A program made the position numbers. DNA of 61,765 nucleotides, from sequence record AP004402. One strand, given 5' to 3'. The stretch is from Stx2 converting phage I. Below are positions 3,001 to 6,000 of this stretch, one piece after another. Each line of letters opens with the position of its first letter. Position 1 is the stretch's first letter.

Positions 3001-6000
3001 CTGGATGTGCCGCAGAAACAGGAGTTTGTTGAGCGTATTCGTGCTGCGCTGGGGACGCCAAAATCACCGGATGAAATGACGCCGGAAGAACAGGAAGTAG
3101 CGGCACAACAACAGGCACTTCAGCAACAACAGGCAGAACTCCAGATGCGCGAGATGGCTGGCAGAGTGGCAAAACTGGAAGCTGACGCCGCCAGGGCACA
3201 TGCAGCTGCACAACGGGATAATGCCAGTGCACAGCGGGAAGTCGCCCTGACACAGGGGCAGCGTTATGTGGATGCGCTTAACCAGGCACATACGGCAGAA
3301 ATCATTACCGGCGTACAGAATATGGAACAGGAGCAGGACGTTCTTCAGCAACAGATGCTGTATACGTTACAACAGCGGATGAATGAAATGTCGCTCTGAA
3401 AACTCTGGCTTCAACTGAACCCCGTCATCGTACGGGGTTTTTTGTTTCCGGAGGTAAGCGTTCCGGGAGCGGTGCGCTTATTCGCGGGGGCAGCGATAAG
3501 CCTTATTTACTCAACCATTCGGATCTGTCCGATAAACAGACCATGCGGAGTTATTTATGGATTTTGAATTTACGGGTGAAGAAACCCCGGAACAACTGGA
3601 AAAAATGCTGGAAGGACTTGGGGATGTGGATATTGACAGTCACGCACAGGACGTCGTGACGGAAGATACCACGGAAAAACATGCGGATGAGGAAGCACAG
3701 ACTCAGACGGGCGATAACAATGTGGCACCGACGCCGGATGCCAGTGTGGAGCAGACGCAGGACGTGAAGGAGCCGGAAGCGAAGGGGGTGCTCACCCGCG
3801 ACGGTAAACACGTCATTCCCTATGAAGTCCTTGAGGCTGAACGTTCCGGTAAGCAACGGGCCGAACAGGAAGCCGCACTTCTTCGTGGGCAGATAGCTGA
3901 AGAAAAACGCAGGGTGGAACTGCTGACGTCTCAGATCCACCAGGCCGGTATGAAGCCCACACCGTTACCGGAAAACGAAAAAATTTCTGATGAGCAGATT
4001 GCCCGTATCAGGGAGATGTATCCGGAAATTGGTGACGCGGTGGCTTCGCTCATCCGTAAAAATAACTATCTCCAGTCCCGTGTTCAGCAATCAGCACAGC
4101 AGGCAGAAGGTAATGGTGGTGAGGATTTATCACCGGTTCTTGATGCGATGAATGCCGTGCCGGTGCTGAAAACGTGGCAGGAGTCCGATCCAGATCGCTT
4201 CTCGGTTGCTGTATCCATCGACGGGAAGCTCCAGAATGACCCCGCATGGAAAGACAAAACGCTCACTGAACGTTTCGCTGAAGTGGCCCGTCGTACGCAG
4301 GTTGCTTTCGGTGAAGTCAGTGAGTCGTCTGCTGACAACAAGGCAGACAAAACGGATATCCGGAAAACGGCGGAAGAGAAAGTGAAGACCGCTGAACAGG
4401 AGCAGGCAGTACCTGCTTCCCCGTCAGATTTAGGCACCACGGCTTCCGTCGGAACCGGTGATAATTTTGAACGGTTACTTGGCGCTTCTCATTCAGAGGC
4501 AGAGGCGATTATGCGCGGTATGACGAATGCTGAAATAGACGCGCTTCTGGAGAAGCTCGGGTAACTTACTGAAGGAGAACTGAAGTAATGACGACTGTAA
4601 CATCAGCCCAGGCGAATAAGCTGTTTCAGGTGGCGCTTTTTACCGCTGCCAACCGCAACCGCTCGATGGTAAATATCCTCACTGAACAGCAGGAAGCGCC
4701 AAAAGCGGTTTCGCCGGACAAGAAAAGCACGAAGCAGACCAGCGCGGGTGCGCCGGTTGTCCGTATCACAGACCTTAACAAACAGGCCGGTGATGAAGTG
4801 ACCTTCAGCATCATGCACAAACTCTCAAAACGTCCGACGATGGGAGATGAGCGTGTTGAAGGTCGTGGTGAGGATCTCAGCCATGCTGACTTCTCCCTGA
4901 AAATCAATCAGGGACGTCACCTGGTGGATGCAGGCGGACGTATGAGTCAGCAGCGCACGAAGTTTAACCTGGCATCCTCAGCCAGAACGCTTCTGGGGAC
5001 GTACTTTAATGACCTGCAGGACCAGTGTGCGATAGTGCATCTTGCTGGAGCTCGTGGTGATTTTGTTGCTGACGACACTATTCTGCCGACAGCGGAGCAC
5101 CCTGAATTCAAAAAAATCATGATCAACGATGTACTGCCTCCGACACATGACCGTCACTTTTTTGGCGGTGATGCGACAAGCTTTGAGCAGATTGAAGCGG
5201 CAGATATTTTTTCTATTGGCCTGGTGGACAATCTCTCCCTGTTCATTGACGAAATGGCGCATCCGTTACAGCCGGTTCGTCTGTCCGGTGATGAACTTCA
5301 CGGAGAAGATCCATATTACGTCCTGTACGTCACGCCGCGTCAGTGGAATGACTGGTACACCTCGACGTCCGGTAAGGACTGGAACCAGATGATGGTTCGT
5401 GCCGTGAACCGTGCAAAAGGTTTTAATCATCCGCTGTTCAAAGGTGAATGTGCGATGTGGCGCAATATCCTGGTTCGTAAGTATGCGGGTATGCCGATCC
5501 GTTTCTATCAGGGTCAAAGGTTCTGGTATCAGAGAATAACCTGACGGCAACCACGAAAGAGGTCGCTGCTGCAACCAATATTGACCGCGCCATGTTACTG
5601 GGGGCTCAGGCGCTGGCAAATGCTTACGGTCAGAAGGCGGGCGGTCACTTCAACATGGTTGAGAAGAAAACGGATATGGATAACCGTACTGAGATAGCAA
5701 TCAGCTGGATCAACGGTCTGAAAAAAATCCGTTTCCCCGAGAAGAGCGGCAAGATGCAGGATCACGGCGTGATTGCCGTTGATACAGCAGTGAAGCTCTG
5801 ATTTTTTCCTTTCCCTATGCCGGGTTTTCGCCCGGCTTTTTCAGGAGTCATTAATTATGGCAAAGACTATCCTTGCCCCGTCACTGAGTGAACGGGTCTA
5901 TACGGGTACGCACGGTAATGAGTCGGTGGCAGAAGGCGTATTTACGGTGAATGCTGCGGAAGCGGACAGTGTTATTCATCTTCTCTCACTGCCAGTGGGC

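Follow-up and report, generated by a model that had tools for sequence, protein, structure and literature searches.

Where does the capsid gene of Stx2 converting phage I end? In the window (the whole stretch of 61,765 nt in sequence record AP004402), an ORF for a candidate capsid protein stops at 5544, and a second frame that overlaps its end runs on almost to a strong terminator. An earlier note on this DNA offered three explanations for the arrangement, namely a programmed frameshift giving a longer capsid isoform, a frameshift lesion (through a sequencing error or a true mutation) and an independent small gene. The features from which the question arises are the following.

4588..5544, plus strand: ORF of 318 amino acids, starting with ATG and ending with the TGA at 5542..5544
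5592..5801, plus strand: mechanical ORF of 69 amino acids, whose start codon lies inside the capsid gene, as Met336 of the 404 residues found in relatives, and has no Shine-Dalgarno sequence
5819..5836, plus strand: intrinsic terminator-like hairpin GCCGGG-TTTTC-GCCCGGC, followed by TTTTT to 5841, detected by a terminator scan and lying 3' of the capsid gene

The –1 frame, relative to the 318-amino-acid ORF, contains a TAA at 5478..5480 and is then open from 5481 to the TGA at 5799..5801, a run of 106 codons; the stop of the ORF at 5544 and the extent of the second frame are therefore just as the earlier note gave them. The terminator that it placed at 5819..5841 was also recovered, as the hairpin and its T run, and the sequence of this element is unchanged in the phages 933W, Stx2 II and vB_EcoP_phi345. 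The ATG at 5592 had been taken as the only one in the second frame; it is the first, and three more follow in frame at 5655, 5676 and 5754, along with GTG codons at 5769 and 5790. It was, however, rightly described as having no ribosome-binding signal, there being no Shine-Dalgarno-like purine run in the 25 nt upstream of it (tgctgcaaccaatattgaccgcgcc).

Profile HMM searches show a single gene behind the two frames. PF13252 (Phage_capsid_3, formerly DUF4043; family cut-off 23 bits) matches the 318-amino-acid ORF over profile positions 2–284 of 376 (E = 4e-64, 217.3 bits) and the downstream frame alone over positions 282–375 of 376 (E = 2.4e-20, 73.3 bits), so that the two pieces adjoin in the capsid profile. 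When one G is inserted at the break, the repaired protein matches over positions 2–375 (E = 5.4e-88, 295.9 bits). The scores for TIGR04387 (N4-gp56 family major capsid protein; cut-off 60 bits) are 69.9 bits for the first piece and 78.9 bits for the repaired protein, and repair carries the coverage on from profile position 227 to 314. The alignment of a solved major capsid protein, 8h89_A, with residues 51–403 of an intact relative crosses the break without interruption (E = 1.2e-38). Given the PF13252 and 8h89_A matches, the downstream frame encodes the last 95 residues, at the C-terminus, of this coat protein. Both pieces in the window thus score above the family cut-offs and jointly span the profile; unlike the members of these families, however, the window has no single ORF that does so. 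An uninterrupted ORF over the full PF13252 domain is present in 933W, Stx2 II and phi345 and absent from the window, where the break falls at profile positions 282–284. These matches show that the long open –1 frame is not a product of chance but the frame in which the 3' quarter of the capsid gene is properly read; its first stretch, 5481..5513, is merely stop-free out-of-frame sequence. The pieces can accordingly be described as follows.

4588..5544, plus strand: 5' part of the gene for the major capsid protein; codons 1–309 authentic, codons 310–318 (QRFWYQRIT) and the TGA out of frame and created by the deletion
5514..5801, plus strand: 3' piece of the capsid gene, codons 310–404 (SKVLVSENN...DTAVKL) and the stop codon, matched by PF13252 and now in the –1 frame

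The relatives show what an unbroken copy looks like. A megablast search with 4588..5860 returned 191 phage and 422 E. coli records, nearly all of them 933W-type Stx-converting phages or prophages (Sepvirinae, Traversvirus), and in the best matches 1273 query bases are aligned with 1274 subject bases. The capsid gene is one CDS of 1215 nt, encoding 404 amino acids, in 933W (L0116), Stx2 II (ORF C4) and phi345 (‘major head protein’); VT2-Sakai/Sp5 also carries the 404-amino-acid gene whole. In RefSeq the product goes by the name ‘N4-gp56 family major capsid protein’. The earlier note had named orthologues stopping at the equivalent of 5544, with a downstream ORF conserved in its own right and having a start of its own, as the result that would speak against its reading; the opposite is found, the orthologous capsid proteins reading through to the equivalent of 5801. 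To judge from these comparisons, the normal gene is one of 1215 nt for a 404-residue HK97-fold coat protein (Phage_capsid_3/DUF4043, N4-gp56 family), the single major capsid gene of a 933W-like short-tailed Shiga-toxin phage. A stretch of 4273 nt with the gene at its centre shows only two differences between the window and 933W, Stx2 II and phi345.

4625, plus strand: private substitution of T for A, giving TTT (Phe13) against the TAT (Tyr13) of the relatives
5511..5513, plus strand: site of the lesion, a run of GGG against GGGG in the relatives, seen in the alignment, the difference lists, the 82-nt probe searches, IMG/VR and the local loci

At the second of these sites the codons of the relatives read TAT CAG GGG TCA AAG GTT and those of the window TAT CAG GGT CAA AGG TTC. 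Insertion of one G yields a 404-amino-acid protein identical to that of 933W, Stx2 II and phi345 except for F13 in place of Y13. With one G of a four-G run lost, GGG is left at 5511..5513; translation from the ATG at 4588 then departs from the true frame after Gly309, passes through nine wrong codons and stops at 5544, and the true codons 310–404 run on in the –1 frame to 5801. The nine wrong codons include the rare AGG, AGA and ATA, as is typical of out-of-frame reading. The DNA of 933W L0116 (AAD25459.1), Sp5/VT2-Sakai ORF62 (ECs1223), Stx2 II ORF C4 (BAC77990.1) and the phi345 ‘major head protein’ is thus as in the window bar one substitution and one G, and these 933W-like relatives and the window have the same neighbours around the gene (portal, ORF61 homologue, capsid, terminator, ORF63 homologue). 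The difference is that the relatives have a single ORF, whereas the gene in the window is split into the 318-amino-acid ORF and an out-of-frame 3' remnant.

The GGG allele is known only from the Stx2 phage I record among the collections searched. An 82-nt probe spanning the site had no exact match in any of the 178 phage records that it matched, nor in any of the 384 matching E. coli records (412 places); in both sets the best matches are one gap away, at 98.8%. A search of IMG/VR with the exact context (a 38- or 39-mer) found the three-G form in 0 contigs and the four-G form in 28, and all 35 local loci that cover the site have GGGG. At the protein level, an exact look-up places the 318-amino-acid product (BAB87856.1, ‘hypothetical protein [Stx2 converting phage I]’; UniRef100_Q8SCB2) on one contig, that of the Stx2 phage I record (for which PMC3430580 gives the accession AP004402), and the intact 404-amino-acid protein on at least 1000; no gene with exactly this truncated 318-amino-acid product was present in the assembly index.

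Capsid genes broken in other ways do occur. Outside the window, the 69-amino-acid product has been called only on contigs whose capsid gene is truncated at a contig end, interrupted by scaffold Ns or damaged by a different lesion. Two Logan assemblies (SRR23523825, locus L008, and SRR36032850, locus L009; 2400–2425) lack G914 of the CDS, CCGTTT having become CCTTT 11 nt upstream of the site affected in the window, and this loss likewise results in a split into 318 and 69 amino acids; L009 has a second deletion, at CDS position 408. In a further assembly (ENA ERZ28575178, L010) substitutions make a stop, leaving a piece of 315 amino acids. The split in L008 was considered as an independent recurrence of that in the window and rejected, the lesion (G914) being a different one. 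With such lesions in the raw public assemblies L008, L009 and L010, broken capsid copies, real or artefactual, are not unheard of. They are scattered, as errors or decay would leave them, and not gathered at a single conserved site of recoding.

Taken together, these comparisons make it almost certain that the split reflects a single-base deletion lesion confined to the AP004402 record, and neither a regulatory device nor a second gene. Of the three explanations in the earlier note, that of a lesion, by sequencing or by true frameshift, is the one that survives; the programmed isoform is refuted by the unbroken 404-amino-acid ORF of every relative examined, and the small gene by the identity of the downstream frame, which makes up the C-terminal quarter of the capsid protein, and by the lack of a ribosome-binding site in front of it. 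The split is, on this reading, a deletion in a known gene, the orthologue of 933W L0116 and Sp5 ORF62, and is not novel.

Whether the lesion lies in the phage or in the record is a separate matter, on which the remainder of the window is informative. The whole window is colinear with 933W, with 99.97% identity over 1..31755 and 99.38% over the remainder, and 181 of the 197 differences sit at 57–60 kb, in a divergent patch of the lysis region (R-ant-Rz/Rz1). Only three indels relative to 933W are isolated, namely the capsid G, an intergenic AC at 40265 and a G6/G7 difference at 48064, and two of them, the capsid G and the intergenic AC, are private to the record. The capsid frameshift is therefore the one difference from 933W in 61.7 kb that breaks an ORF. 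General sloppiness of the record was considered and rejected as an explanation, given that most of its indels relative to 933W fall in the truly divergent lysis-region patch and that the one at 48064 also occurs in Stx2 II. In 9120 nt over which 933W and Stx2 II are 100% identical, the record has three private changes, these being the missing G and the substitutions Y13F and, in the tail fibre, E366D; T4625 occurs in none of 29 other local loci, and T9048 in none of 17. Genome-wide, the private changes are three nonsynonymous substitutions, all of them transversions, a synonymous transition, the frameshift and the loss of an intergenic dinucleotide, a set that looks like unselected noise. These changes lie in DNA that is invariant across isolates from Japan and Belgium and strain EDL933, and a sequence-determination error is therefore favoured.

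There is also evidence from function. In Sp5, deletion of ORF62 (ECs1223) leads to the loss of heads, packaging, plaques and lysogenisation, all restored by complementation, and an anti-ORF62 antibody decorates the whole Sp5 head, which identifies ORF62 as the head shell protein (PMC5155283). Stx2 phage I, for its part, was ‘isolated’ from strain Okayama O-27, to go by the title that Sato et al. gave their 2003 paper, and isolation of a phage would be hard to reconcile with a coat protein missing its last 95 residues. Within the explanation by a lesion, we infer that an error of sequence determination (a miscalled G run, or a cloning or PCR error, in a Sanger-era genome) is the probable origin; a genuine mutation, private to this phage, very recent and inactivating, is possible but rather doubtful. 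Besides the private changes elsewhere in the record, the uniqueness of the allele and its position in a homopolymer speak indirectly for an error. It counts against an error that a run of four Gs is a weaker hotspot than longer homopolymers, and that broken copies of this gene occur in other assemblies.

There is a slim chance that the GGG is real and that the phage builds heads all the same, either with borrowed coat protein or through an unconventional –1 slip of tRNA-Gly in the P-site. In the first case the phage would be head-defective and its coat protein would be supplied in trans by a second prophage of the host carrying this capsid gene. Such a helper is conceivable, as the 82-nt probe matches two phages of Morioka V526, the Stx1 converting phage and Stx2 II, so that the Stx1 and Stx2 phages of one strain can have the same capsid gene, and some E. 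coli genomes contain up to three copies of the region; prophage–prophage complementation in O157 appears, moreover, to be the subject of PMC2669165. The idea is nonetheless unsupported and highly improbable for this phage: the GGG allele was not met again in over 560 records, and the record's further private changes fall in DNA that does not vary between 933W and Stx2 II, which hints at noise in this sequence rather than at biology.

In the second case a tRNA-Gly reading GGU (5512..5514) would slip back to GGG (5511..5513) and translation would continue on UCA AAG GUU, giving the wild-type capsid protein of 404 amino acids alongside the 318-amino-acid product. The attraction of this scheme is that a –1 slip on A-GGG-U would yield a product identical to the protein of the relatives, that a rare AGG codon lies two codons downstream of the slip and that capsid frameshift isoforms exist elsewhere, the products of T7 gene 10A/10B being an example. 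T7 gp10B is mentioned in PMC5155283. Against this, there is no X XXY YYZ heptamer and no single site of the A AAG type in any frame of 5470..5545, the GGU to GGG slip at 5511..5514 being the sole conceivable one; the earlier note was correct to argue from the lack of a canonical heptamer in the overlap against classical –1 frameshifting. The 96 nt downstream (5515..5610) fold no better than shuffled sequences (z = +0.60; equalled or bettered by 149 of 200 shuffles), and the only hairpin, at 5561..5576, is about 47 nt away, with none at 5–9 nt after the site. Upstream, a Shine-Dalgarno-like stimulator is absent. Nor is the two-frame arrangement kept anywhere: it is absent from all 562 records, from the IMG/VR contigs and from the 35 local loci, and all relatives are in frame. 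An HK97-type capsid needs hundreds of coat subunits, and background slippage could therefore not supply them. Of the features that define a programmed frameshift site, the frame break lacks every one that could be tested, and a slip of this kind is extremely improbable as the source of the coat protein.

The likeness to established recoding genes is one of geometry alone. In T7 gene 10A/10B, in the lambda-type tail chaperone pair G/GT and in dnaX, as in the window, an upstream ORF is overlapped by a –1 frame that extends it; the window, in contrast, lacks the slippery heptamer, the stimulatory structure and the conservation. The short products also differ, being complete and functional in T7 10A/10B, G/GT and dnaX, whereas that of the window is without the last 95 residues of the coat-protein fold.

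A separate small gene in the downstream frame (69 amino acids from the ATG at 5592, or longer), beside a naturally short capsid protein of 318 amino acids, is next to impossible: the mechanical ORF 5592..5801 is present and its product is called by annotation pipelines on some contigs, but those contigs have a contig end or other capsid lesions, the frame corresponds to the last quarter of the capsid profile (282–375 of 376) and to the C-terminus of 8h89_A, no ribosome-binding site precedes 5592, and the single 404-amino-acid ORF of all relatives, in which this ATG is an internal Met, refutes the proposal.

A deletion lesion in the capsid gene, the preferred explanation, is in the first place a matter of data quality. 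BAB87856.1 (UniRef100_Q8SCB2) represents a truncated and partly out-of-frame form of an essential, well-characterised capsid protein, and the 3' remnant should not enter an annotation as a gene of its own or as a case of recoding. A genuine loss of the G would make this Stx2 phage head-defective, which would bear on how recovery of such a phage was possible. Nothing in the sequence suggests a new mechanism.

Some further differences from the related phages should be mentioned. The lysis-region patch (window 57000..60000) contains many small indels that are intergenic or mutually frame-compensating, and it looks like a recombinant segment from another lambdoid phage rather than the result of point divergence. 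The collagen-like tail-fibre gene (window 7951..9987) is 99 nt, or 33 codons, longer than in 933W and Stx2 II (678 against 645 amino acids); the difference, at about 9078..9119, is one of repeat number in the Gly-X-Y region. In the same gene G is replaced by T at 9048, a private change that puts Asp366 in place of Glu. Two other substitutions differ from both 933W and Stx2 II, the sole comparators at these positions: at 18999, codon 396 of the ORF 17814..19079 is TGG (Trp) rather than AGG (Arg), and at 38227 the exo homologue (37579..38256, minus strand) is changed synonymously. At 40265, between the homologues of ssb and L0079, one AC has been lost from ATACACAGTG, which is ATACAGTG here; 933W and Stx2 II have ACAC. 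Finally, at 48064 (933W position 16319), near the 3' end of 933W L0092, there are seven Gs in 933W as against six in the window and in Stx2 II; 933W is the odd one out at this G run, and its L0092 annotation may therefore be a frameshifted version.
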